Notes: a model not told the origin generated them from the sequence alone. DNA of 64,000 nt from Candidatus Woesearchaeota archaeon (GCA_964467035.1 CAYXNX010000003.1:21252-85251); one strand, 5' to 3'. Positions 5,829 to 50,256 are shown, counted from the first letter of the stretch. Numbers and translations: made by a program.

Positions 5829-6326
5829 TTACAATTTAAGAAAAATTTGCATTGTTTTTCCTTTTCTAACTCTCTTTATTAAATTTCTTTTTTCTAAATC
5901 CTGAAGAATATAACTTAACTTAGCTTTAGACATATCTGTCTTAATCCTCAAAGTACTTTGAGTAATTCCTTCTTGTTCCTTAACTTTTTTCAAAACTCGT
6001 GCCTCACTGGGATCTAAAAATTTAAGCGCAAAATCAAATTTGCCATTTTCAATACTTTCCTTTTTTTCATTCTCTAATTTCTCCAAAATAATTTTATCTG
6101 TTTTATTAAAAAACAAAAGATAAAAACCTAAAGCAAAAACAAAAGCAAATATTCCTATTGCAAAATGTGAAACACTTAATTTCCTCTCAATCTCAATACA
6201 ATTAGGATTATTAAAACAACCTATTTTGTCAGATTTATCAACTAAACTATCAACCAAATACATAAACATTCCCCCAATTAATAGAGAAATTACAATCAAT
6301 AAAATACCTAACTTTTTATTTTCCAT
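5829..6326 (-). CDS. membrane-anchored winged-helix (MarR/ArsR-like) regulator
   Basis: Two TM segments with a CFNNPNC loop, then ARVLKKVKEQEGITQSTLRIKTDMSKAKLSYILQDLEKRNLIKRV (wHTH). Confidence 0.6.
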   Translation of the reverse strand: MENKKLGILLIVISLLIGGMFMYLVDSLVDKSDKIGCFNNPNCIEIERKLSVSHFAIGIFAFVFALGFYLLFFNKTDKIILEKLENEKKESIENGKFDFALKFLDPSEARVLKKVKEQEGITQSTLRIKTDMSKAKLSYILQDLEKRNLIKRVRKGKTMQIFLKL

Positions 6327-17058: not shown

Positions 17059-17477
17059 CTCAACCTCTTTCTTATTTTGTCCATAAAATCAATAACTTTA
17101 ATAGCATATTCTTCATTAAAACTTTTCCCATAATACTCAATTCCATTTCTAAAGTATCTCAATTGATCTGCAAATTCAATTTCTTTTTCTGAAAAACCCA
17201 AATTATAAAGATAAACAATTTCTGATTCATGAGCTCCATAACCTGATGCATTTAATCCCTCTTTTAACATTTTAGAACGAATAAATTTCATAATCACATC
17301 GTAACAAGAAGTAATTATAACATTTTAGTTATTATTGTCCAAAAGGAATTTTTTTATTATCTCTTTAATAAAATCATAATCTTTATCTGCTTCATTTACC
17401 AAAGCATTGGCTCTTGATAAATCTGGAGATTGTTTTTTTACAATGCCTTTTTTTATAAATTTTTCAAAATCTTTCAT
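17055..17477 (-). pseudogene. HEPN-domain toxin gene with one in-frame TAA (17325-17327)
   Basis: Own translation: MKDFEKFIKKGIVKKQSPDLSRANALVNEADKDYDFIKEIIKKFLLDNNN*NVIITSCYDVIMKFIRSKMLKEG...LRYFRNGIEYYG. The ATG overlaps the MNT stop (ATGA at 17474-17477). Confidence 0.6.
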
Positions 17478-18019
17478 AGTTCTATCCCTCCCACTAAAAC
17501 AATTCCATTAAAAATATTTTCCTTAAGTTCTTTTTTAATCTCATTAAAAGAATCATAAAAATTAAGAGAAATTTTTTTATTAAAAAACTTTTCATAATTA
17601 ACAAAGTTTATATCTTTTTTCTTGCACCCAATTATTGCAATATCAATATCTGAATTAAATAAATCATATCCTTTTGAATAACTTCCAAACAAAACTATTG
17701 TGGTTCCAGGAAAACTATTTTCCAAAAAATTTGTAATTTTAGATTCATAAATCATTCTAAGATTTTCTGTTCTTTTAAGTTTTATAACAAAATCTCGATC
17801 CACATTTAACTCAACAGCACTTAAATTAATAGTTCCATGTTTTTCTACCTTGACAATTTTCTCTTTTTTTAATTTTTCCAAAGCCTTCGCAACAGCAGTA
17901 GGAGACACATTTAGATTTCTCGATATTTCTCTTTTGTTTATTGATTTGCCAGCATTTACACAAAGGAATCTAAATATTTCATTTTGCAACCTAGTCCATT
18001 TTAGTTTATAAGTTTCCAT
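17474..18019 (-). CDS. winged-helix + minimal nucleotidyltransferase (MNT) protein, HEPN partner
   Basis: N-terminal wHTH (INKREISRNLNVSPTAVAKALEKL). NTase motif LFGSYSKGYDLFNSDIDIAI. Confidence 0.75.
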   Translation of the reverse strand: METYKLKWTRLQNEIFRFLCVNAGKSINKREISRNLNVSPTAVAKALEKLKKEKIVKVEKHGTINLSAVELNVDRDFVIKLKRTENLRMIYESKITNFLENSFPGTTIVLFGSYSKGYDLFNSDIDIAIIGCKKKDINFVNYEKFFNKKISLNFYDSFNEIKKELKENIFNGIVLVGGIEL

Positions 18020-18020
18020 T

Positions 18021-18054
18021 TTAGTTTATACATGTAAACTAAGGTTTATAAAAC
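18021..18054 (-). promoter_or_regulatory. promoter with palindromic operator upstream of the MNT-HEPN operon
   Basis: 8-bp inverted repeat ttagttta/taaactaa (18021-18028 / 18035-18042) lies between the TATA box (rc gttttataaacc, 18043-18054) and the ATG at 18019. The 10-mer ttagtttata recurs at 18001-18010. Confidence 0.4.
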
Positions 18055-18252
18055 TTCGCATTTAAATTTATTTTATTACTTTAACTTTTTTATATAAAAA
18101 CTGTTTCCCAATTATCTTTAGTTCTCGTTTTTCAAAAATCCTTTGAGTATTTTCTTTTTTCAAGAAATTGTAAAAAATTCATTTCAAATTAAGTTATAAT
18201 AAATATAACAAAATTATATTTAAATCTTTATTAAATAATACTGTGATATTTA

Positions 18253-27949: not shown

Positions 27950-28333
27950 TATTTAAATTTATCGTTATCTAAAAATTATGCTCCCACCAGACATATATCA
28001 CTCCCTAAAAGGATTACATCTCTTTCTTCTTGATTTATCTTTTAATTACCATTTTGTCTCATTAAGAAGTTTTGTCCATCTCTGAAGTGTTCTTTTCCTT
28101 ACCTCAACAAATTTGGAGAAAATAATTTTTCTACACTGATTTTGTAATCCATATGAACCGCCATTTATAAATTATAAATTTAATTATATTCTAAAGATTT
28201 CTTTTTTAACATGTCTGATGGACTGGAATTGCCCTCTTTTTCTAAAAGAACATTAAACTTAAACTAAATTGCAACCAACATCGGGCTTAAAAGAAGTTTA
28301 ATTTACTCTAAAAAATCCTCCTCGTGAAACAAA

Positions 28334-28413
28334 GCTGATAATTTTTTCAGAGCTGGGGCGAAATTTTGGGAAATCATCCAGTTTGAGATTTCCTCTTTAT
28401 CTTCTGTTCAACG
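28334..28413. repeat. Family B structured hairpin repeat, copy B1
   Basis: gctgataa...ctgttcaacg outer arms and ggaaatc/gatttcc apical stem. 28341-28375 is identical to 47457-47491 (35 nt). Flanking homology to 47375-47456 begins near 28267. Confidence 0.8.
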
Positions 28414-28506
28414 ACCCAATCTGATAGGCGAGAATGCAACATTCTGAAGTAAAATTTTAGGCGAGGGCTCTGTTTTTAATCTTTTTATGAAGCAAAGTTT
28501 TGTTAT

Positions 28507-29154: not shown

Positions 29155-29309
29155 TTTTAATCTCCAAATCTCTAAGAAAACTTAGAGGTTTATCCTTCAC
29201 CTCTTAATAATTAGAAATAAAGGGTAGTTTATAAATTTTTGCCCATTTTGAGTAACTGCTGAAGGCAGACTATATGTGCGTAAGCACTGCCCGAGCCCAA
29301 AATTTTATT

Positions 29310-29395
29310 GCTGATAACACTGGAATTTAACGAAGTTTTGCCGTAGAAAAAATTTGGGAAAATCCTGCAGGATTTTCTGTTTAAGCCCTGTTATG
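29310..29395. repeat. Family B structured hairpin repeat, copy B3
   Basis: gctgataac ... gttatg outer boxes. Perfect 20-nt palindrome gaaaatcctgcaggattttc at 29358-29377. The downstream segment 29397-29467 is homologous to 47530-47583. Confidence 0.75.
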
Positions 29396-29562
29396 TCTTC
29401 CGAGGTCTTTAACACGAGAGCCTGCAAGGCGTGGCACGAGCAGAACGAACGAAGTGACCTCGTGAGTTTCCAATCTCCGAAAATTCGTTGTTATCGTAGT
29501 TGTCAGAGAATTATTTTGAATTTGCCGAAAATTTTAAAAATAGAGAACATCTTCTTTTTTGT

Positions 29563-29910: not shown

Positions 29911-29992
29911 TCCTCTAAAAAATTATGAATGCCATGTGCGTCAAGAGGACACCTTGGTAAAACTAAATCAATGCCATGTGCTGATTCCCTAG

Positions 29993-30017
29993 GCAGGTTC
30001 AAATCCTGCGCGCGGAG
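29993..30017 (+). other. tRNA 3'-end-like fragment (T-arm plus acceptor strand)
   Basis: GCAGG TTCAAAT CCTGC GCGCGGA G read directly. No D or anticodon arm upstream. Preceded by a duplicated 12-mer aatgccatgtgc (29927-29938, 29969-29980). Confidence 0.5.
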
Positions 30018-30036
30018 AGATGATTCTCTTCGCAGG

Positions 30037-30072
30037 GGCTTTTATTCTCTGACAGGCTTTTATTCTCTGACA
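30037..30072. repeat. perfect 18-nt tandem duplication (ggcttttattctctgaca x2)
   Basis: Read directly: 30037-30054 = 30055-30072. Confidence 0.9.
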
Positions 30073-30075
30073 ATT

Positions 30076-30143
30076 TCGTTAAAATTTTGTTAAGCAGATT
30101 TGCGTAGCAATTTTGTGAGAGCTTTCTTTATGATTTTAACGAA
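30076..30143. repeat. Family B-related hairpin, copy B5
   Basis: 11-bp perfect stem ttcgttaaaat / attttaacgaa enclosing gcgtagcaatttt (compare gcgtagcgaacgatttt in 46131-46148). Followed by gataaca. Confidence 0.6.
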
Positions 30144-30221
30144 GATAACAATATTAGAATTTTCAGTTTTAACCTCTGTGGAGGCAAGTCCCGAATTGAG
30201 CATAACACCGATTATGTCCAA

Positions 30222-30761: not shown

Positions 30762-30885
30762 AAAAAAATTATTTATTGTATATTTAAATCTCTTTCTATT
30801 TTTAACTATGACTTCTTAACTTCTCACTTCATTCGTCGGCAGATTTAACACCTCTTAACCAAAATTACTCATTTCATTCGCAACC

Positions 30886-30946
30886 CACTTCAAACAAATA
30901 TCTGAAAAACTCGTGCCTCTCCAAGTATTTGGGTTAGATTAACACA
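30886..30946. repeat. Family A dispersed repeat, solo copy 3
   Basis: cacttcaaacaaatatctgaaaaactcgtgcctctccaagtatttgggttagattaacaca aligns with 1480-1543. Enclosed by cattcgc (30874-30880) / gcgaata (30947-30953). Confidence 0.8.
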
Positions 30947-31084
30947 GGCGAATACTCCTTTATTCTAAGTTTAAAGTATTCTTTTCTTATTTCTTCTTTT
31001 TTCATACAAAACCGAAGAATCTATCTCCGAACTATTTTTTGATTTTGCCTAGTGACATATGTCCACCTTGCTATACACATTATC

Positions 31085-40458: not shown

Positions 40459-40690
40459 ATTTTGACAAATATTTGAAGTTTTATATTAATTTATATATAA
40501 AAAAAGATGTATTAAAATAACTAAGGGACCTAAATAATAAGGTCCCTTTTCTGCCCCCTCCTTCTCCCAACCCTGCTCGCCTTGTTCCATCCTTTTCAAA
40601 CCCCCACTCGCAAAGTTGCTCTGACTCGAAAAATCAAATTTTGAATCTCAACAAATCTACGAAGTAGTAGGGAATCTACGATTCCCAATA

Positions 40691-40919
40691 TGCCCCCTCC
40701 GGGACTCGAACCCGGGTCTGGGCCGTTCTCCGAAGATCCCAAAATTCGCTGAAAAAACGAAAGCTTCTTCATTAACTCTCGGGACCTAACAATTAACTAA
40801 TTGTCGACCTATGAAGTCTTGCCAGAGAGCAGCTGATTTGAGAATCTAGGTTTATCCTTTCATCAAGGATAAACCACTGCTCGAGAGGGCCCAATGCTTG
40901 ACCGCTACACCAAAGGGGC
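40691..40919 (-). tRNA. tRNA-Glu (anticodon CUC) with an intron of about 156 nt at 37/38
   Basis: 5' exon GCCCCUUUGGUGUAGCGGUCAAGCAUUGGGCCCUCUCG (40919-40882). 3' exon CGGCCCAGACCCGGGUUCGAGUCCCGGAGGGGGCA (40725-40691). The acceptor, D, anticodon and T stems all pair. A bulge-helix-bulge can be drawn: a 4-bp helix CUCU/GGAG flanked by 3-nt bulges CGA and AAC. Confidence 0.8.
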
Positions 40920-40955
40920 ATAAATAACCTCAATTTTCTAAGTATAAAAATCTTA

Positions 40956-42671: not shown

Positions 42672-42789
42672 GGCTCGAATCAAACGCTCCAAGCAGGATT
42701 CGATCCTGTATGTTGAGTTTACGAAACATCCGCAACAAAGTGAGGACAAAGGTTCGAATCAAACTCTCCAAGCAGGATTCCATCCTATA
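42672..42789. repeat. tandem tRNA-T-arm-like repeats abutting the 3' end of tRNA-Gln (79-nt period)
   Basis: 42672-42710 and 42751-42789 match at 35/39 positions (ggYtcgaatcaaacKctccaagcaggattcSatcctRta). The core caggattcga resembles the tRNA-Gln T-arm at 42801-42816. A third related copy is at 41812-41830. Confidence 0.7.
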
Positions 42790-42791
42790 AA

Positions 42792-42864
42792 TAGCCCGTC
42801 CAGGATTCGAACCTGGGTCAGCTGGCCCAGAACCAGCTATACTTGACCACTGTACTAACGGGCT
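42792..42864 (-). tRNA. tRNA-Gln (anticodon CUG), no intron
   Basis: AGCCCGUUAGUACAGUGGUCAAGUAUAGCUGGUUCUGGGCCAGCUGACCCAGGUUCGAAUCCUGGACGGGCUA folds into a full cloverleaf. A1-U72 is typical of archaeal tRNA-Gln. Confidence 0.85.
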
Positions 42865-44589: not shown

Positions 44590-45050
44590 CCTAACCCCCC
44601 CTCAATAAAATTTAAAATAAAAACAGTTATTACAGCAACAACAATTGAAAAAACAAAGTTTACCAGATTTCTTATAATTGCAAATTTTTTACCAAGCATA
44701 ATTGACTCTGCAGGAAGTTGCACAACACCCACAGTTACCCAAGCAACAATAAAAGCAGTTACAGCTATCAACCCAACCCCTTGTTCTAAAAGTTCTCCCC
44801 CAATTATATAACTAAAAACCGGGTTGCCTGCAAAAATACTTCCAACACTTGCTCCAACTAAAGGGTCAATTAAATAACTTCCTTGAAATAATTGTCCATA
44901 AAAATCCTGAGGAACAATTGCATTCACTAAACTAATTAAAAGCATAATCCCAAAAATTGTAGGAATCATTCTTTTAAGCATATTCCCTGCTAATACAAAA
45001 GATTTTTTCCAACGTTTTTTATTTAATTCCATCTTAAAATCTTGGCTCAA
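44583..45050 (-). CDS. predicted permease, N-terminal-type half
   Basis: Polytopic membrane protein. Overlaps neighbouring genes. Confidence 0.5.
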   Translation of the reverse strand: MSQDFKMELNKKRWKKSFVLAGNMLKRMIPTIFGIMLLISLVNAIVPQDFYGQLFQGSYLIDPLVGASVGSIFAGNPVFSYIIGGELLEQGVGLIAVTAFIVAWVTVGVVQLPAESIMLGKKFAIIRNLVNFVFSIVVAVITVFILNFIEGGLGW

Positions 45051-45304
45051 TCTCTCTTTTTTTTAGGTTCTGAAAGTTCTGTTTCTAAAGCTTCTCTTTC
45101 TCCGATATTATCAGTTCTTGTACTTCTAAATCTTCCAAAAAAGCCTCTTCTCGGAGACATTCTTCCAAAACCTCTTCCAGACCTTTGTCTTTTAAATGAA
45201 AAAAATCTTGGCCTTTTATTTTCACAAGGTCCAAAACCTCTTCCTGTTAAAGGTCCTTGGCCGTCTGGTCCTGTTCCATCTTGTCTTGGCATTTTAACCT
45301 CCAC
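45047..45304 (-). CDS. DUF5320-family protein
   Basis: MPRQDGTGPDGQGPLTGRGFGPC N-terminus is characteristic. Confidence 0.65.
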   Translation of the reverse strand: MEVKMPRQDGTGPDGQGPLTGRGFGPCENKRPRFFSFKRQRSGRGFGRMSPRRGFFGRFRSTRTDNIGEREALETELSEPKKKRD

Positions 45305-45379: not shown

Positions 45380-45472
45380 AGCCACTGACGGGACTTGAAC
45401 CCGTGACCTCGTCATTTTTGATATTATCATAGTACCAATGACGCGCTCTATCCTAAACTGAGCTACAGCGGC
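45380..45472 (-). tRNA. tRNA-Thr (anticodon GGU) with an intron of about 17 nt at 37/38
   Basis: GCCGCUGUAGCUCAGUUUAGGAUAGAGCGCGUCAUUGGUA[CUAUGAUAAUAUCAAAA]AUGACGAGGUCACGGGUUCAAGUCCCGUCAGUGGC. All four stems pair. Exact splice points are approximate. Confidence 0.8.
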
Positions 45473-45596: not shown

Positions 45597-45887
45597 CTAA
45601 AATAAATCTGGTTTCCACCTAAAAAGATCTTCTAAGTTTATTCTTTCCAAGCCCTTGCCAGTAGAAGTAATTGAAATTGAATCTTTGCCTAATTTTTTTG
45701 AAATCACCTTAATTAATTCTAAATTTTCATCAGACATCAAAGGTTCTCCTCCAGAAATATCTAAACTCACATTTAGAATATCTATATTCTCAATAACTGC
45801 TAATTTTTCCCCTAAAGAAAGATCTTTTGTGGGGCTATTTGCATCAAGACAGCAAAAATAACACGAGTAAAGGCATTTATTCGTCAC
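45597..45887 (-). pseudogene. radical SAM protein remnant (N-terminal ~96 codons only)
   Basis: NVTNKCLYSCYFC CX3CX2C motif plus GGEPL, but the ORF stops after 96 aa. The remaining ~120 nt before tRNA-Thr cannot hold the rest of a radical SAM domain. Confidence 0.5.
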
Positions 45888-46110
45888 ATTCCAAATTAGG
45901 GTGTTTTTATCATTTTCATTTTTTCAAGAATTAAGCATCTTGAGGTGCTAACACCTCTAAAAAAAGATATATAAACAGATATATAAATTTAATTGAAACG
46001 AAGTTTCAGCTATCTAATTTTCGATAGAAAAATTGCGCGCGCTTCTTTGGGTGGGAATTATCAATTAGAGATTTAAATTTTTAGCCCTCTTTCTCAATTG
46101 CAATTAACAT

Positions 46111-46184
46111 CGGAATTTAGCGAAGTCGTGAGCGTAGCGAACGATTTTGGAAAATGCGAGCCGAGCATTTTTCCGTTAAATTCC
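46111..46184. repeat. Family B structured hairpin repeat, copy B4
   Basis: Outer stem cggaatttagcg / ccgttaaattcc. Inner stem ggaaaatgc / gcatttttcc. Shares ggaatttaRcgaagt and gcgtag motifs with 29321-29346. Confidence 0.75.
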
Positions 46185-46313
46185 TATTATATTCGTTTTT
46201 CCCAGTAAAAACCTGGGCCAAAGTGAAACGGTTTTTGCGAAGGAAGCACCATTAGTTAAAAGAATAAAGGGCAGGGATTCATTAATTTACTACTATTTAA
46301 TTACTATATAACA

Positions 46314-46328
46314 GAAACATTTATAAGG
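46314..46328 (+). promoter_or_regulatory. BRE/TATA-like box (gaaacatttataagg) 22-24 nt upstream of the ATG at 46350
   Basis: Read directly. Same element type as at 11188-11200. Confidence 0.45.
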
Positions 46329-46349
46329 TATTAAATTTCTCTAGATATT

Positions 46350-47342
46350 ATGGCAAATGAAACACACTATGGTGTAATATCTGATGTTCATCAAGACCCA
46401 GGAATAGTTCCAGCAACTATTGAAGTTTTGAAAAAATTGGGTGCAGAAAAACTTTTGATAAACGGGGATATTGGAAATCAGCAGAGAACTCTTGAAGATA
46501 GTAAAAATTATGTTGCTTTTATTCTTGATTCAATTGGAAAAAGTGGACTTGAATCTTATGTTCAGCCAGGAAGCCATGAAACACTACTTGCTTTTGGACC
46601 TGTAATGGATGCTTTTGCAGATAAATATTCAAATTTAATTGATGCAACAAAAACTCCAAAAGCAGAACAAAAAGGTCATAGTCTAATTTTCTTGCCAGGT
46701 TCAGATTTTCTTTGTGGTGGGGAATATCAAATCGGAAATCATGAACAAATTCCAAGTGGAAGATATATTCAAACTCAAAAAGGATTAATGCAATTTGAAG
46801 AATTTGGTCAATATGTTGGTGCTCTTCAACAAGGAATTGCTCAAGGAGCAATGCAATATGCCAACATGAATGATTTACGAAGATTGGTAAATGATTCAGA
46901 CAAAAGTATTGTTGTTTGTCATGTTCCAAGAAAATTTGACAATCCTGAATATGCAGTTGATATGGCTGAATTCGGAGAAGCAACAGAAAAATTTAATCTA
47001 AATGGTAATGATGTTGAGCAAGGTTCTGTATTTCCTCTGTCTGTTGCACAGCAGATTGTTCAAGCAGGTTATCCTGTTGAGATAAGACAAGAAAATAGAG
47101 GAAATAAGGATTTAAAATCATTATATGAAGAATTAGGAATAAATAAAGCAGTTAGTGGGCATTTCCATGAGAGTGGACACAGAGCAAATGACACTTATGG
47201 AAATCACGTTTCTGAAGGAAATTTAGTAACTGATTTATTTTGGAATTCTGGACATTTAGATACTGGACAAACAGGAATTTTGACAGTTGGAGACGGAAAA
47301 GTAGGTTATAGAAATATCCGTCTTGAAGAACATCTGAAATAG
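46350..47342 (+). CDS. calcineurin-like metallophosphoesterase (accessory ORF in island 2)
   Basis: ISDVHQD, INGDIGN, GSHE, CHVP and GHFHES motifs in canonical order. Confidence 0.7.
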   Translation: MANETHYGVISDVHQDPGIVPATIEVLKKLGAEKLLINGDIGNQQRTLEDSKNYVAFILDSIGKSGLESYVQPGSHETLLAFGPVMDAFADKYSNLIDATKTPKAEQKGHSLIFLPGSDFLCGGEYQIGNHEQIPSGRYIQTQKGLMQFEEFGQYVGALQQGIAQGAMQYANMNDLRRLVNDSDKSIVVCHVPRKFDNPEYAVDMAEFGEATEKFNLNGNDVEQGSVFPLSVAQQIVQAGYPVEIRQENRGNKDLKSLYEELGINKAVSGHFHESGHRANDTYGNHVSEGNLVTDLFWNSGHLDTGQTGILTVGDGKVGYRNIRLEEHLK

Positions 47343-47449
47343 AATCCCTGCCCCTTCTATATTTAGCCGATTTTTTTATTGAGTTTAACATCGTGATTAA
47401 GAGAAGTGGCAATCCCTCCAAAAATTTATCCTCTGGAACGAAGTGACTA

Positions 47450-47530
47450 GCTGAGGATTTTTTCAGAGCTGGGGCGAAATTTTGGGAAATCCCAAGCCGA
47501 AGGATTTCATCTTTATCCCCTGTTATCAGC
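47450..47530. repeat. Family B structured hairpin repeat, copy B2
   Basis: gctgagga ... gttatcagc outer boxes and ggaaatcc / ggatttc apical stem. 47457-47491 is identical to 28341-28375. Confidence 0.8.
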
Positions 47531-47681
47531 CCCGAGGGCTTTAGCCCGAGAACGCAGTGGGGCACGAAGTGAGTTCGAGACGCCTCTTTTTTGTATTTTG
47601 AAATAATATTTTTTTGGGTGGGCTATGTATTAGAGAAGGCACTTTCGTTAAGTTAATAAATAAAACAACTTTCCCATAATC

Positions 47682-48527
47682 ATGAAAAATTCAGATTTGC
47701 ATACACATAGTTATTATTCGGATGGAGATTTGCCTCCTTCAGAAGTTGTAAAATTAGCAAAACAAAAAGGAATAAAAAATTTAGCAATTGCAGACCACAA
47801 TTCTTTTGAAGGAGTTGCTGAAGCAGTTAAGGAAGGCAAAAAACAAGGAATTAATGTTATTCCTGCAATAGAAATTCGTGCAAAAGAAGATGAGGTTTTG
47901 GGCTACTTTATTGATTACCAAAATGAAAATTTTAAAAAAGAGGTAGAGAAAATTCAAGAAAACCTCATCGACAGAGTTAAAAAAATAATTTTAAAATTAA
48001 ACAAAAAAGGAATAGATGTTAGTTTTGAAGATTTGCTTAAAACATATCATCCAAACAGAAATTTCATGGAGATTCATCTTATAAAATATTTGAAATCTAT
48101 TGGCTTGGGAGATATTAGAGAATTATGGCCAAAATATATTTCAAAAGAAGGGGAAACTTATGTTCCTGTTGAAGAAATTTCTATTTTAGATGCAATAAAA
48201 TTAATCAAAAAATATGGTGGCGTTCCTGTTTTGGCTCATCCGTGGGTAGAGTTAAGTTCAAAAGAATTGTTAAAAGAAGAAAATTTTAAGGAGTTGGTTA
48301 AAGCGGGATTAAAAGGAATAGAAATAGATAATGGCGATAGGGATGACAGAAGAGATGAGCAAACATTAAAGAAAATTAAAGAATTAGCAGAAAAGTATAA
48401 TCTTATCATCACTTCTGGTAGTGATTTTCATGGGGATTATTTAGTTCAAGCTACAAAATGTCATGGACTTGGAGATTATAATTGTGATGAGAAAGTTGTT
48501 GAAGAATTGAAAAAAGCAAAAGAGTAG
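47682..48527 (+). CDS. PHP-domain phosphoesterase (accessory ORF in island 2)
   Basis: DLHTHSYYSDG, IADHNS, the LAHP-type histidine, and SGSDFHG. Confidence 0.8.
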   Translation: MKNSDLHTHSYYSDGDLPPSEVVKLAKQKGIKNLAIADHNSFEGVAEAVKEGKKQGINVIPAIEIRAKEDEVLGYFIDYQNENFKKEVEKIQENLIDRVKKIILKLNKKGIDVSFEDLLKTYHPNRNFMEIHLIKYLKSIGLGDIRELWPKYISKEGETYVPVEEISILDAIKLIKKYGGVPVLAHPWVELSSKELLKEENFKELVKAGLKGIEIDNGDRDDRRDEQTLKKIKELAEKYNLIITSGSDFHGDYLVQATKCHGLGDYNCDEKVVEELKKAKE

Positions 48528-48563
48528 AAAGTGCCTTCTCCTATTGGGTGAGAGAAAAAATCT

Positions 48564-48585
48564 GATTTCCTATTTCTGTATTAAC
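48564..48585. repeat. Family B right-arm-only copy (half site)
   Basis: gatttcctatttctgtattaac resembles the right arm gatttcctctttatcttctgttcaac of copy B1. No matching left arm. Confidence 0.5.
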
Positions 48586-48630
48586 TCTAACTTGTAGGCA
48601 TTCTCAAAAATTGAAACTAACAAGACGGAC

Positions 48631-50256
48631 CTACTTATTCAGAATTTCGTCAAGATTAATTTCCATAAAAGAAACAGGCATCTTGATTTTATAATTGCTT
48701 AATAACTTTGGATGAACCTCTCCAAAATAACCTAAAGAAACATCTCCATAAAACACCTCCCCCACTCTTCCCGGGATAAATTTATCCAGCTCTTCTAAAG
48801 GCTCTTTTACTTTTAATTCAACACCCAACATTCTCCCAAAATAATCAATAATTTGCTTTAATTTAGTAAAATTTCCTGGTGCAATAGCAATCATCAAATT
48901 CAAATTTTCCTCTACTTTGGTTTCAAATTTTTCATTTTTGTTAAAAACTTTTCCAATTTCAAAAATCTCTTGAGGGTATGAAACATCAACATTTTCTCCC
49001 AAAATTCTCATAGCAGGAATAAAAAGATTAGGCCTCAAATATTTATACTCTGTTTTAGAACCTTCAACTTCTATAAGATTTTCAAATTTGTTTTTCTTAC
49101 CTTCTGAATCTTTAATTAAGTGATAAGAAGAAACCTCTAATAAATTAGCTCCTACAAGTATTGATGAAACTAACGATTGAAATTCAGATTCTTTAGATTG
49201 TTTTCCAATAGTTGATATGTTTGGAATCTCAGGAGAAATTTTATCATACCCATAAGCAATTGCAATTTCTTCTATCAAATCCACCTCGTGCAAAATATCA
49301 ACTCTCCAGGGAGCTATTTCCACTTTGCCTTTATAATAATTATGTCCCATCTTTTTAATTAAATTTTCAATTTCTTTTTCCTTAAGCTTTAAACCCAACA
49401 AATTATTAACCTTTTCAGTTGACAAATCAATTTTTTCAGGTTTAAAATCTGGCAATTTTTCAGATTTAGAATATTTAACATCACACTGATAAATTTCTCC
49501 CCCCATCCCAGCCAAAGTCGCAACAACAATATTCAAACACTTTTTCAAAGTTTCAAAATCAGCTCCAGAACACTCAATAAAAACCTCCTCAGTTTCTTCA
49601 GAAATCTTCCCAGTTCTATGGGAATTAATAATTGGAGGCATACTTAAAATCTCTTTATTCGCATCAATAAAAATAGGGTATTTTTCAAAACCCTGTAACA
49701 AATCCCCGTATTCTCTTCCCGCAGGATGTTGTGACAAAATTTGCCTTCCATTTATTTCTTTAGGAAATTCCAATGGTTGAAATTTAATCTTATCCGGAAA
49801 CTCAGCTTTGTAAGTTATAGGAAATTTAATTTTCTCCAAAGGATAAATTCCAATCGCTAATTTCTTTCTCTTTCTTCCCAAAGTGTTATGCAATTTTTCC
49901 TGAATGTCAACTATTTCTTTAATTTTTTCATCACTAAATTTTAAATTTTTCACAACAGCACATGCAGTAAAAGGTCTAACTTCCTTAACAGAATTATCAA
50001 TCCGAACCTTATAATTGCTTTTCTTAATATTGTATTCTCTAATTCCCCCCTTACTTTTACCCAAAAACTGCTTAAAACTCGCTATATAATTCTGAAAACT
50101 CAAAAGATCTGGCCGATTCGGAAAAATTTCAATCTCAACTTCTTTATTATCGATTCTTTCCAAGGAAGTCCCAAATAAAGAAATTTTTTCAATAATCTCG
50201 TCGCTAAGTTTAACACTTTTTTCAAATTCTTCTCTTGGAAAAATTACATTTGCCAT
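48631..50256 (-). CDS. pheT: phenylalanine--tRNA ligase beta subunit (archaeal type)
   Basis: Archaeal PheT architecture (B3/4 and B5 domains). IFPNRPDLLS. Adjacent to pheS with a 1-nt overlap. Confidence 0.9.
   Translation of the reverse strand: MANVIFPREEFEKSVKLSDEIIEKISLFGTSLERIDNKEVEIEIFPNRPDLLSFQNYIASFKQFLGKSKGGIREYNIKKSNYKVRIDNSVKEVRPFTACAVVKNLKFSDEKIKEIVDIQEKLHNTLGRKRKKLAIGIYPLEKIKFPITYKAEFPDKIKFQPLEFPKEINGRQILSQHPAGREYGDLLQGFEKYPIFIDANKEILSMPPIINSHRTGKISEETEEVFIECSGADFETLKKCLNIVVATLAGMGGEIYQCDVKYSKSEKLPDFKPEKIDLSTEKVNNLLGLKLKEKEIENLIKKMGHNYYKGKVEIAPWRVDILHEVDLIEEIAIAYGYDKISPEIPNISTIGKQSKESEFQSLVSSILVGANLLEVSSYHLIKDSEGKKNKFENLIEVEGSKTEYKYLRPNLFIPAMRILGENVDVSYPQEIFEIGKVFNKNEKFETKVEENLNLMIAIAPGNFTKLKQIIDYFGRMLGVELKVKEPLEELDKFIPGRVGEVFYGDVSLGYFGEVHPKLLSNYKIKMPVSFMEINLDEILNK

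Follow-up and report, generated by a model that had tools for sequence, protein, structure and literature searches.

A probable integron-type cassette array between pheT and tRNA-Thr of a DPANN archaeon

A stretch of 64,000 nucleotides from a Candidatus Woesearchaeota archaeon (GCA_964467035.1 CAYXNX010000003.1:21252-85251; hereafter the window, meaning the whole 64 kb) contains, in the 45.3-50.3 kb context between a tRNA-Thr gene with a neighbouring radical-SAM remnant and pheT, a region that we call Island 2. We consider Island 2 to be, probably, a small and partly degenerate integron-type cassette array, resembling a cluster of attC sites lacking integron integrases (CALIN), of a Woese/Pacearchaeota-like DPANN archaeon. 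An earlier note on this DNA had described two phosphoesterase genes arranged here as accessory cassettes delimited by repeats, in the order hairpin B4, metallophosphoesterase (MPE), hairpin B2, PHP phosphoesterase and half site. All of these are present in the window, and the notion of accessory cassettes is supported by a covariance model of the hairpin, by covariation in its stem, by the occurrence of the MPE block among different neighbours and by the breaks of homology at the hairpin cores. Read away from pheT, the array would comprise a 40-nt empty cassette with a truncated site, the PHP gene with B2, the MPE gene with B4, and a truncated radical-SAM cassette. Its elements, all given on the plus strand, are as follows.

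45888-46104 (+), end region of the distal (radical-SAM) module, with TTGGGTGGG at 46047-46055, the end motif TTTTTAGCC...CAATTGCAATTAAC and the R'' flank
46101-46192 (+), attC-like site 1 (B4), with core TAACA at 46105-46109 and stem arms at 46112-46122 and 46174-46184
46243-47392 (+), conserved MPE cassette block, in which the first ~95 nt after the 3' core are replaced in the window
47382-47530 (+), attC-like site 2 (B2), a long variant, with cores TAACA at 47386-47390 and TGTTA at 47521-47525
47526-47599 (+), leader of the PHP cassette, GC-rich and hairpin-rich with a T-run at its end, equivalent to 'post-core' modules in relatives
48562-48585 (+), truncated site (half site), CTGAT...TTCCTATTTC-TGTATTAAC, composed of the R'' remnant CTGAT, the L' arm and TGTATTAAC
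48609-48622 (+), terminal core AATTGAAACTAACA, at the array/chromosome junction ~10 nt from the pheT stop codon

In bacteria, integrons are the classic platforms for capturing genes. Their archaeal counterparts were not reported until 2022, nearly all of them lacking an integrase: most are CALINs, including clusters of 2-5 attC sites in Woesearchaeales and Pacearchaeales, the cassettes are described as generally co-oriented, and only six IntIs were found, for which the IntI-specific domain was the defining feature (Ghaly et al. 2022, PMC9668308). Island 2 is of this general type.

The hairpins of Island 2 are members of a larger family. The motif AACATCG was found in nearly every spacer of the related contigs L002, L010 and L011, always on one strand, and alignment of 18 sites from L002 and L011 yielded the consensus nnnTAACATC-GGGATTTAGAGAAG-[hairpin]-AATTTGGGnGGAG-[hairpin]-CTCTAAATCC-TGTTAnnn, which corresponds to sites of ~90 nt of the form TAACA-TC-[11-bp stem]...[stem]-TGTTA. 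RNAalifold predicted for these sites an 11-bp stem, set off by a bulge of 2-3 nt from a 5-bp TAACA/TGTTA core that does not vary; compensatory changes occur at 10 of the 16 pairs. When 28 sites were considered, 89.4% of the cells were paired, versus 79.8% in column shuffles (a value reached in 0 of 500) and 34-49% when the partner was slid. On the strand reading TAACATC there are 28 G.T pairs as against 9 A.C pairs, and folding therefore appears to be conserved on that strand. attC sites are imperfect palindromes bounded by R'' (RYYYAAC) and R' (GTTRRRY), conserved in structure and variable in sequence, and the elements agree with this in their invariant TAAC...GTTA cores and covarying stem. 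Canonical attC sites further have an R box, a central spacer unpaired on both sides and an L box with extrahelical bases, whereas core and stem are separated here by a one-sided bulge of 2-3 nt only (TC or TCT).

The covariance model, R1, was built from sites of other contigs and included no window sequence. It nevertheless recognizes B4 at 46101-46192 (50.8 bits, E=5.9e-9) and a second hairpin of the window at 29311-29396 (43 bits), and scores the long variants at 47382 (B2; 12 bits) and 28272 weakly. No R1 match was obtained in 55 loci (~770 kb) of other Woese/Pacearchaeota genomes containing MPE homologues, nor in 256 kb of viral contigs. Given that R1 matches the window and none of these other loci or viral contigs, the site family is real and confined to one lineage. 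Within each contig the sites are co-oriented whatever the orientation of the genes (11 sites in L002, 15 in L011 and 13 in L076; ~40/40 overall). A distinct arrangement is seen at 5630-6982 of L011, where six hairpin units devoid of open reading frames (ORFs) follow each other in tandem with a period of ~258 nt, as empty cassettes amplified in place.

Palindromes that are short, GC-rich, intergenic and restricted to one lineage are also reminiscent of MITEs (miniature transposable elements with inverted repeats) or REP-type repeats. According to such an explanation, MITE-like elements with ACA...TGT ends would have been inserted with TA duplication into intergenic DNA, and the 'cassettes' would be ordinary genes lying between insertions. 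Each element is indeed flanked by TA on both sides (T-A|ACATC...TGT|T-A), which is compatible with a target-site duplication but belongs to the core as well, and L011 contains identical copies twice as well as tandem ORF-less units. MITEs are, however, expected to be near-identical, to lie in both orientations and to leave gene order unaffected, whereas the copies described here are very diverse, with compensatory stem changes instead of the uniformity of a burst, and are co-oriented. Moreover, as detailed below, gene neighbourhoods have been rearranged and the breaks fall at the cores of the elements, sequence complementarity joins the ends of a gene module rather than those of an element, and the arrays stop at a fixed site beside a recombinase gene. 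We therefore regard a MITE origin as very improbable.

The GC content of the three spacers of Island 2 (31.6%, with 39% in the hairpin, 40.7% and 35.0%) exceeds that of the window (29.3%) and of its ordinary short intergenic regions (7-25%), as the earlier note had stated. In B4 the 3' core is mutated, reading TATTA at 46185-46189 instead of TGTTA; folded as single-stranded DNA, 46112-46184 reaches -14.8 kcal/mol (z=-3.1 on the plus strand, z=-1.5 on the minus strand). Positions 47449-47491 of B2 are 95% identical to 28333-28375, including a 35-nt exact core (47457-47491 = 28341-28375). The CTGAT of the half site is complementary to the ATCAG that follows the 47521 core, and we read it as a remnant of a site because module ends are complementary in other cassettes. 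Short motifs reported to be shared by the spacers are present as well, although TTGGGTGRG starts at 46047 and not at 46042. This motif also occurs at 47614 and 48544 (3 matches versus 0.71 expected), TTAACATC at 46104 and 47385, and AACATCG at 28277. Taken alone, such counts are near chance or only marginally above it, and the motifs draw their meaning from context: TTGGGTGRG is the conserved centre of the hairpin-site family and recurs in the loops between inverted-repeat tiers. Further similarity is found at 46037-46084, where the window matches, at 85% identity, the sequence flanking an unrelated cassette ORF of L010 (2756-2803).

In AT-rich genomes, RNA genes typically stand out as intergenic DNA that is GC-rich and structured, and the spacers might alternatively encode structured RNAs (small RNAs, terminators or insulators, or processing stems on either side of each mRNA), with the repeats flanking the ORFs acting at the RNA level. 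An excess of G.T over A.C pairs on one strand would be equally expected of RNA, and T-runs follow some of the hairpins. Against this, the spacers had no Rfam 15 match at the gathering threshold or even at E<=10 (only two tRNAs reach the threshold), whole-spacer RNA folds are mostly unremarkable (z between -0.4 and +0.6, with only spacer 1 on the plus strand at z=-2.1), and the strand of the hairpin is independent of that of the gene. In addition, the left repeat arms lie 5' of the TATA boxes of apparently leaderless genes, hence outside the transcripts, and both the reshuffled gene order and the empty site would be left unexplained. An RNA-level role is the least probable of the explanations that we considered, to the point of being hardly credible.

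The boundaries of the cassettes are best illustrated by the MPE block (46243-47392), which shows 92-94% nucleotide identity to L002, L003, L010 and L011-L014 and recurs in at least four other contigs, with different neighbours each time. In all of them the upstream limit of the block is the 3' core of the preceding hairpin (TG|TTAAACTC...) and its downstream limit the 5' core of the next one (...GAGTTTAAC|ATC), so that homology breaks at TG|TTA and TAAC|ATC. The ends of a module are mutually reverse-complementary over 8-10 nt, the outer 4-6 nt being module-specific (GTTAAACTC, GTTAAATCC, GTTATACGA, GTTAGTAGAA and others). Complementarity between ends of the same module averages 5.2/11, versus 3.1/11 for other pairs (p=7e-7), and none was found between the two ends of one hairpin. 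This is a signature of integron cassettes, in which R' is reconstituted only in the circular cassette. Genes of the arrays in relatives lie in both orientations with spacers of 150-350 nt between them, and the cargo of L002, L010 and L011 includes toxin-antitoxin pairs, NUDIX, APH, HAD, a second metallophosphoesterase and dCMP deaminase. Inversion of genes between inverted cores was considered as the cause of the mixed orientation and dropped, as module-end motifs keep a fixed polarity irrespective of how the gene is oriented.

With L076 taken into account, two classes dominate the cargo of these arrays: nucleotide or 'house-cleaning' hydrolases (NUDIX, HD/YfbR, HIT, HAD, metallophosphoesterases, nucleoside deoxyribosyltransferase, dCMP deaminase) and toxin-antitoxin pairs (ParE, PIN/VapB).

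That Island 2 is accessory is indicated by synteny, the comparison that the earlier note had proposed. The nearest relative of the backbone is found in L072-L074 (in L072, 78% amino acid identity for pheT and 83% for pheS); no pheT relative exceeding 78% identity was retrieved among 5.8 billion proteins, and a pheT scan of GTDB genomes found no close relative. Window and L072-L074 have in common pheS, pheT, two ArsP genes, a NifB-like gene, two small genes, tRNA-Gln and a VTT-domain gene. In L072, however, only 448 nt separate pheT from ArsP, a gap that holds tRNA-Thr, inverted, and a small ORF; MPE, PHP and the radical-SAM remnant are absent, and no R1 hairpin was detected in 21.6 kb. Past the pheT stop codon, homology with L072 ends at TAGGTCC.CTTG, after which the window runs TTAGTTTC; this continuation, TTAGTTTCAATT, is the reverse complement of the terminal core at 48609-48622. 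The junction is therefore of the G|TT type, with a putative crossover point (...CTTG|TTAGTTTC) ~10 nt past the pheT stop. Complementarity of the cassette 5' end (TTRRRY...) to its own R'' and crossover at G|TT are both features of integrons.

The island had also been proposed to occupy an integration hotspot. It does adjoin a tRNA-Thr gene and a truncated gene, but this tRNA is present at the same place, in inverted orientation, in L072. It is a neighbour of the island rather than a demonstrated integration target, and the junction that can be demonstrated lies by pheT. The pheT-ArsP intergenic region has been rearranged more than once. The tRNA-Thr gene (45380-45472 in the window, 11899-11991 in L072) is inverted relative to both flanking genes in L072, and a DUF5320 ORF present in the window at 45047-45304 is missing from L072. 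The MPE block, at 92-94% nucleotide identity, is far more widely sampled than the host backbone, which would fit mobility without proving it.

No recombinase gene was found in the 64-kb window by tblastn. In relatives, full arrays are headed by one. In L002, a non-palindromic AACATCTATTAGATAAGG site comes after 11 hairpins that share one orientation, and the gene of a 268-aa tyrosine recombinase starts 119 nt further on. This protein scores 206.9 bits against NF040815 (XerA; cutoff 220) and 159.6 bits against TIGR02249 (integron integrase; cutoff 265), the latter match being split around the missing IntI insertion. Its closest solved relatives are XerA of P. abyssi and T. acidophilum, with 4A8E as the best PDB match, and no IntI with its specific additional domain stands next to the attI-like site. 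All available homologues of 60-72% identity were fetched (L075, L076/L077, L078 and L079, from three NCBI assemblies, ENA and Logan). In 5/5 genomes with a recombinase 60-100% identical, R1 hairpins lie upstream on the same strand (13 in L076) and the motif AACA[TG]CTATTGGATTAC (AACA[TG]CTATT[GA]GAT) is positioned at -117 to -126 from the recombinase start codon; two XerA-like genes at 36-38% identity have neither hairpins nor the upstream motif. The terminal site of L079 is an 11-6-11 imperfect palindrome, CTATTGGATTA-CTTTTG-TAATACAATTG, and the motif ATTGGAT is shared with the outer arm of the experimentally defined dif of P. abyssi, ATTGGATATAA-TCGGCC-TTATATCTAAA (PMC2958812). Based on these five independent co-localizations, XerA is the most likely candidate for the enzyme serving the sites. 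Beyond these genomes, a scan of JGI metagenomes for the recombinase gave two weak matches only, and a search of IMG/VR with the attI-like 17-mer gave 29 hits, none with hairpins, which are chance matches; searched for by itself, the hairpin pattern had 0 viral hits.

A more conventional account would be a classical integron CALIN, consisting of ordinary attC sites served by a canonical IntI encoded elsewhere or acting in trans, with the XerA-like gene being a housekeeping one that is adjacent by coincidence. CALINs of 2-5 attC sites without IntI are known from Woesearchaeales and Pacearchaeales (PMC9668308), the AAC/GTT cores and the complementarity of cassette ends fit integron rules, and the recombinase, which has more than 3000 homologues, falls in the XerA family that is ubiquitous in DPANN. 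On the other hand, all five homologues (>=60% identity) have the array end at a fixed distance, -117 to -126, with a conserved non-palindromic site; no IntI-type gene was found on ~20 array-bearing contigs or in the window; and the unpaired-spacer geometry is unlike that of attC. A further but weak argument against it is that GCA_007117065.1 was outside the 75 genomes of the 2022 survey; the assembly was perhaps unscreened, and its one examined contig starts inside a hairpin. We consider this account unlikely, albeit less so than MITEs or structured RNAs.

Apart from the hairpins, each ORF together with its promoter is bracketed by an inverted repeat of its own, which the earlier note did not report.

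46267-46280 (+), left arm of the MPE inverted repeat, AAGGGCAGGGATTC
47342-47356 (+), right arm of the MPE inverted repeat, GAATCCCTGCCCCTT, beginning within the stop codon
47600-47614 (+), outer (tier-2) arm of PHP, GAAATAATATTTTTT, pairing 13/15 with 48555-48569
47633-47646 (+), inner arm of PHP, GAGAAGGCACTTTC, a 14-nt exact repeat with its partner at 48527-48540
48527-48569 (+), right-hand arms of PHP (48527-48540 and 48555-48569), the loop between them holding TTGGGTGAG at 48544-48552

For MPE, GGGCAGGGATTC at 46269-46280 pairs with 47342-47353, and the MPE cassette of L011 has a perfect 14-nt version of this repeat, forming part of three tiers (TGTTAAACTC/GAGTTTAACA; AAAAAAATCGGC/GCCGATTTTTTT; AAGGGCAGGGATTC/GAATCCCTGCCCTT). 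Among ~600 mismatched upstream/downstream pairs used as a control, the longest repeat was 12 nt and 14 nt was never attained. The outer-arm motif GAAATAATATTTTTT of PHP also forms the inverted repeat of ORF 1815-2414, and several other cassettes carry unique flanking repeats of 10-17 nt. If the array is of the integron type, these repeats would, in the circular cassette, form additional tiers of a single long, interrupted palindrome. Bulge-helix-bulge or rRNA-like processing stems round the ORFs were dropped as a possibility, for the stems are perfect and unbulged and their left arms lie 5' of the promoters.

The mechanism that we propose for the integron-type array starts from a cassette holding a single gene, which may lie in either orientation and has an archaeal promoter of its own; the structured non-coding part of the cassette would have the ~90-nt hairpin TAACA-TC-stem...stem-TGTTA as its apex and the inverted repeats flanking the ORF as its outer tiers. 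The plus strand would fold as single-stranded DNA. Strand exchange by a tyrosine recombinase at the AA|C / G|TT core, similar to that of IntI on attC, would then allow cassettes to be excised, inserted and reshuffled. The candidate enzyme is the XerA-like recombinase heading full arrays in relatives, presumably acting at the adjacent dif-arm-like site (AACATCTATTGGATTAC). The array would be read on the strand opposite TAACATC (the window minus strand, equivalent to the integron 'top strand') as a divergent recombinase gene, an attI-like site and cassettes each ending in a hairpin; this reading was chosen because the junction beside pheT, the place of the recombinase and the bias towards G.T pairs all favour it.

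Compared with integrons and CALINs, the arrays share mostly single-gene cassettes separated by imperfect palindromic sites, conserved AAC...GTT cores with stems that are conserved in structure and variable in sequence, co-orientation of the sites per array, complementarity of the cassette 5' end to its own R'', a chromosomal junction at G|TT, full arrays headed by a tyrosine recombinase gene (divergent from the direction of the array) with a non-palindromic attI-like site, and a cargo rich in toxin-antitoxin pairs and small enzymes. They differ in having next to them a XerA-like recombinase devoid of the IntI-specific insertion, and an attI-like site that resembles a dif arm. The recombination site contains a three-way junction, its TTTGGG(T)GG centre is conserved, and a one-sided 2-3-nt bulge takes the place of the central spacer of attC, which is unpaired on both sides. 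Cassettes have their own promoters, both orientations and extra inverted-repeat tiers round each ORF, the hairpin body is swappable and not strictly co-inherited with the ORF, and small clusters are scattered along the chromosome.

CTX-phi is an integrative mobile element exploiting Xer (IMEX), which integrates at dif by means of a folded single-stranded attP mimicking dif. The closest mechanistic analogues of the system proposed here would be attC x attI recombination and this integration of CTX-phi via a folded single-stranded site. A candidate enzyme of the Xer family, a folded single-stranded hairpin as substrate and tandem accumulation by a dif-arm-like site are in line with IMEX, whereas the units are promoter-plus-gene cassettes of ~0.5-1.3 kb rather than phages or genomic islands, the hairpins are diverse and number in the dozens, and the dif function of the terminal site is putative. 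The pdif modules of Acinetobacter plasmids likewise consist of single genes or toxin-antitoxin pairs between inverted cores (TGTTA...TAACA) in varied contexts, but pdif sites are 28-bp double-stranded XerC/XerD sites, while the cores described here form the bases of ~90-nt hairpins and a single archaeal Xer is present.

Several observations weigh against an integron-type array. The case is one of comparative anatomy, in which neither a recombination event nor a circular cassette nor an excision junction was seen. The B2 element (47382-47530) folds no better than shuffled sequences (z=0.2), and the one-sided bulge departs from canonical attC geometry. Classical integrons keep the attC with its ORF. 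Here, by contrast, the hairpin next to MPE is not co-inherited with it: the window and L011 share stem arms, the hairpins of L002 and L010 are unrelated, and in L002, L010 and L011 the hairpins on either side of MPE blocks of 92-94% identity are unrelated. Because the hairpin body does not faithfully follow the ORF, we infer that exchange can occur at both hairpin cores. Integron cassettes are also expected to be promoterless, co-oriented and expressed from Pc, unlike the present ones, whose genes are of mixed orientation and have their own conserved TATA boxes. Finally, the XerA-like gene could simply be the Xer with the housekeeping role next to dif, the arrays having gathered there for some other reason; the window itself lacks such a gene, and Island 2 adjoins pheT and not a dif-arm-like terminal site.

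The window copy looks like a decaying, immobilized remnant, judging from the TATTA core of B4, the replacement of ~95 nt of the MPE leader, the reduction of the PHP-distal site to CTGAT, L' and R', the truncation of the radical-SAM cargo and the lack of a recombinase within 64 kb. Island 2 is in this sense a small fossil of a larger and more interesting system. More tentatively, and with somewhat more doubt than conviction, we suggest that a lineage of Woese/Pacearchaeota may run an integron analogue based on Xer, in which a XerA-type enzyme without the IntI domain, beside a dif-like attI, would shuffle promoter-bearing single-gene cassettes, the sites being multi-tier folded-DNA palindromes with both hairpin ends recombining. 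A literature search of incomplete coverage returned no description of Xer-linked cassette arrays in DPANN. If true, the integron principle would have been invented independently in Archaea, or else the system would be a living relative of the transition from Xer to IntI. The array-anchored XerA and dif-arm-like site suggest that a different enzyme can run the same structure-specific cassette logic, and cassettes that look built from resident genes, with native promoters and codon usage, could bear on the unsolved origin of integron cassettes. This raises the questions of which recombinase serves archaeal attC-like sites, how IntI evolved from Xer-like ancestors and how a resident gene becomes a cassette. 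For DPANN archaea, it would provide a mechanism shuffling nucleotide-housekeeping hydrolases and toxin-antitoxin genes in very small genomes.

The genes within and around the island are listed below. The archaeal nature of the window is apparent from an intron-bearing tRNA, pheS and pheT of archaeal type, and TATA boxes ~25 nt 5' of the start codons.

45380-45472 (-), tRNA-Thr(GGU), 76 nt plus a 17-nt intron, identified by intron-aware ARAGORN; backbone gene adjoining the island
45597-45887 (-), radical-SAM N-terminal remnant, 96 aa, with CxxxCxxC
46350-47342 (+), metallophosphoesterase coding sequence, 330 aa, calcineurin-like (PF00149, E=2e-5)
47682-48527 (+), PHP/TrpH-type phosphoesterase coding sequence, 281 aa (PF02811, E=6e-15; NF041577, E=4e-40; PDB 3E0F, 2YB1)
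48631-50256 (-), pheT, backbone gene bounding the island

The assignment of the tRNA as tRNA-Thr, made in the earlier note, agrees with our result, since GGU with an intron allowed is better than the Tyr(GTA) of 93 nt called by default ARAGORN both here and at 11899-11991 of L072, a call that we replaced. The mistyping of intron-bearing archaeal tRNA-Thr(GGU) as Tyr(GTA) by default settings is an annotation pitfall in its own right. The 96-aa radical-SAM ORF is truncated, as had been noticed, having no continuation in any frame, and is probably truncated cargo of the distal cassette.

Each ORF has its own TATA-like box, again as noted earlier. That of MPE is TTTATAA at 46320-46326, 24-30 nt 5' of the ATG and invariant in six homologous cassettes; that of PHP is TTAATAAATAAAA at 47653-47665, 5' of the PHP ATG; and the distance from TATA to ATG of the window ORFs is about 25-27 nt. 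A foreign composition of the ORFs, for which codon usage had been suggested as a check, is ruled out: usage in both is native (distance in relative synonymous codon usage z=-1.3 and -1.4, closer to the window mean than most genes), their GC content at third codon positions is ordinary (0.13 and 0.19 versus a mean of 0.19), and only the spacers are GC-rich. Nor did the suggested search for bacterial or viral best matches point outside the Archaea, as the 316 MPE homologues all come from Woese-, Pace- or Nanoarchaeota, several being 94-95% identical, and the island genes displayed no bacterial, viral or defence affinity, with PADLOC and PHROGs giving generic domain matches only. The PHP protein is similar to solved pAp phosphatases and RNase AM. 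Exact matches on record are lacking for the MPE protein, and for the PHP protein are limited to a 1.1-kb contig of the same strain.

The MPE gene is conserved across Woese/Pacearchaeota and also occurs outside arrays in the more distant relatives L004 and L007. L004, whose MPE is 85% identical, has no hairpins, and its gene lacks flanking inverted-repeat arms; upstream of the gene, however, the stretch GGCGTATC..AAGCACC known from the cassette leader is still present (5940-6000). This may be MPE in a form that is not a cassette, and could shed light on the way in which the cassette was built.

Elsewhere in the window, GC-rich spacers (31-40%) with the same kinds of modules occur at 1251-1814, 2415-2725, 27950-28506, 29155-29562, 29911-30221, 30762-31084 and 40459-40955, alongside the R1 hairpin at 29311-29396 and a long-variant hairpin at 28272-28405. 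ORF 1815-2414 is surrounded by post-core modules and half sites in the opposite orientation and has its own 15-nt flanking inverted repeat. The genome appears to be peppered with small cassette clusters rather than to contain one array. A double-HTH (AsnC/HTH_24) gene at 288-1247 is 94% identical at the amino acid level to its L072 counterpart (17232-18194), versus 62-88% for the backbone; it occupies a different place in L072, lies beside a cassette-like region in the window, and may itself be mobile. Lastly, two 39-nt direct repeats, 90% identical, are located at 42672-42710 and 42751-42789 beside tRNA-Gln (42792-42864, minus strand) and resemble fragments of a tRNA T-arm or 3' half (GGTTCGAATC...CAGGATTCGATCCTG).

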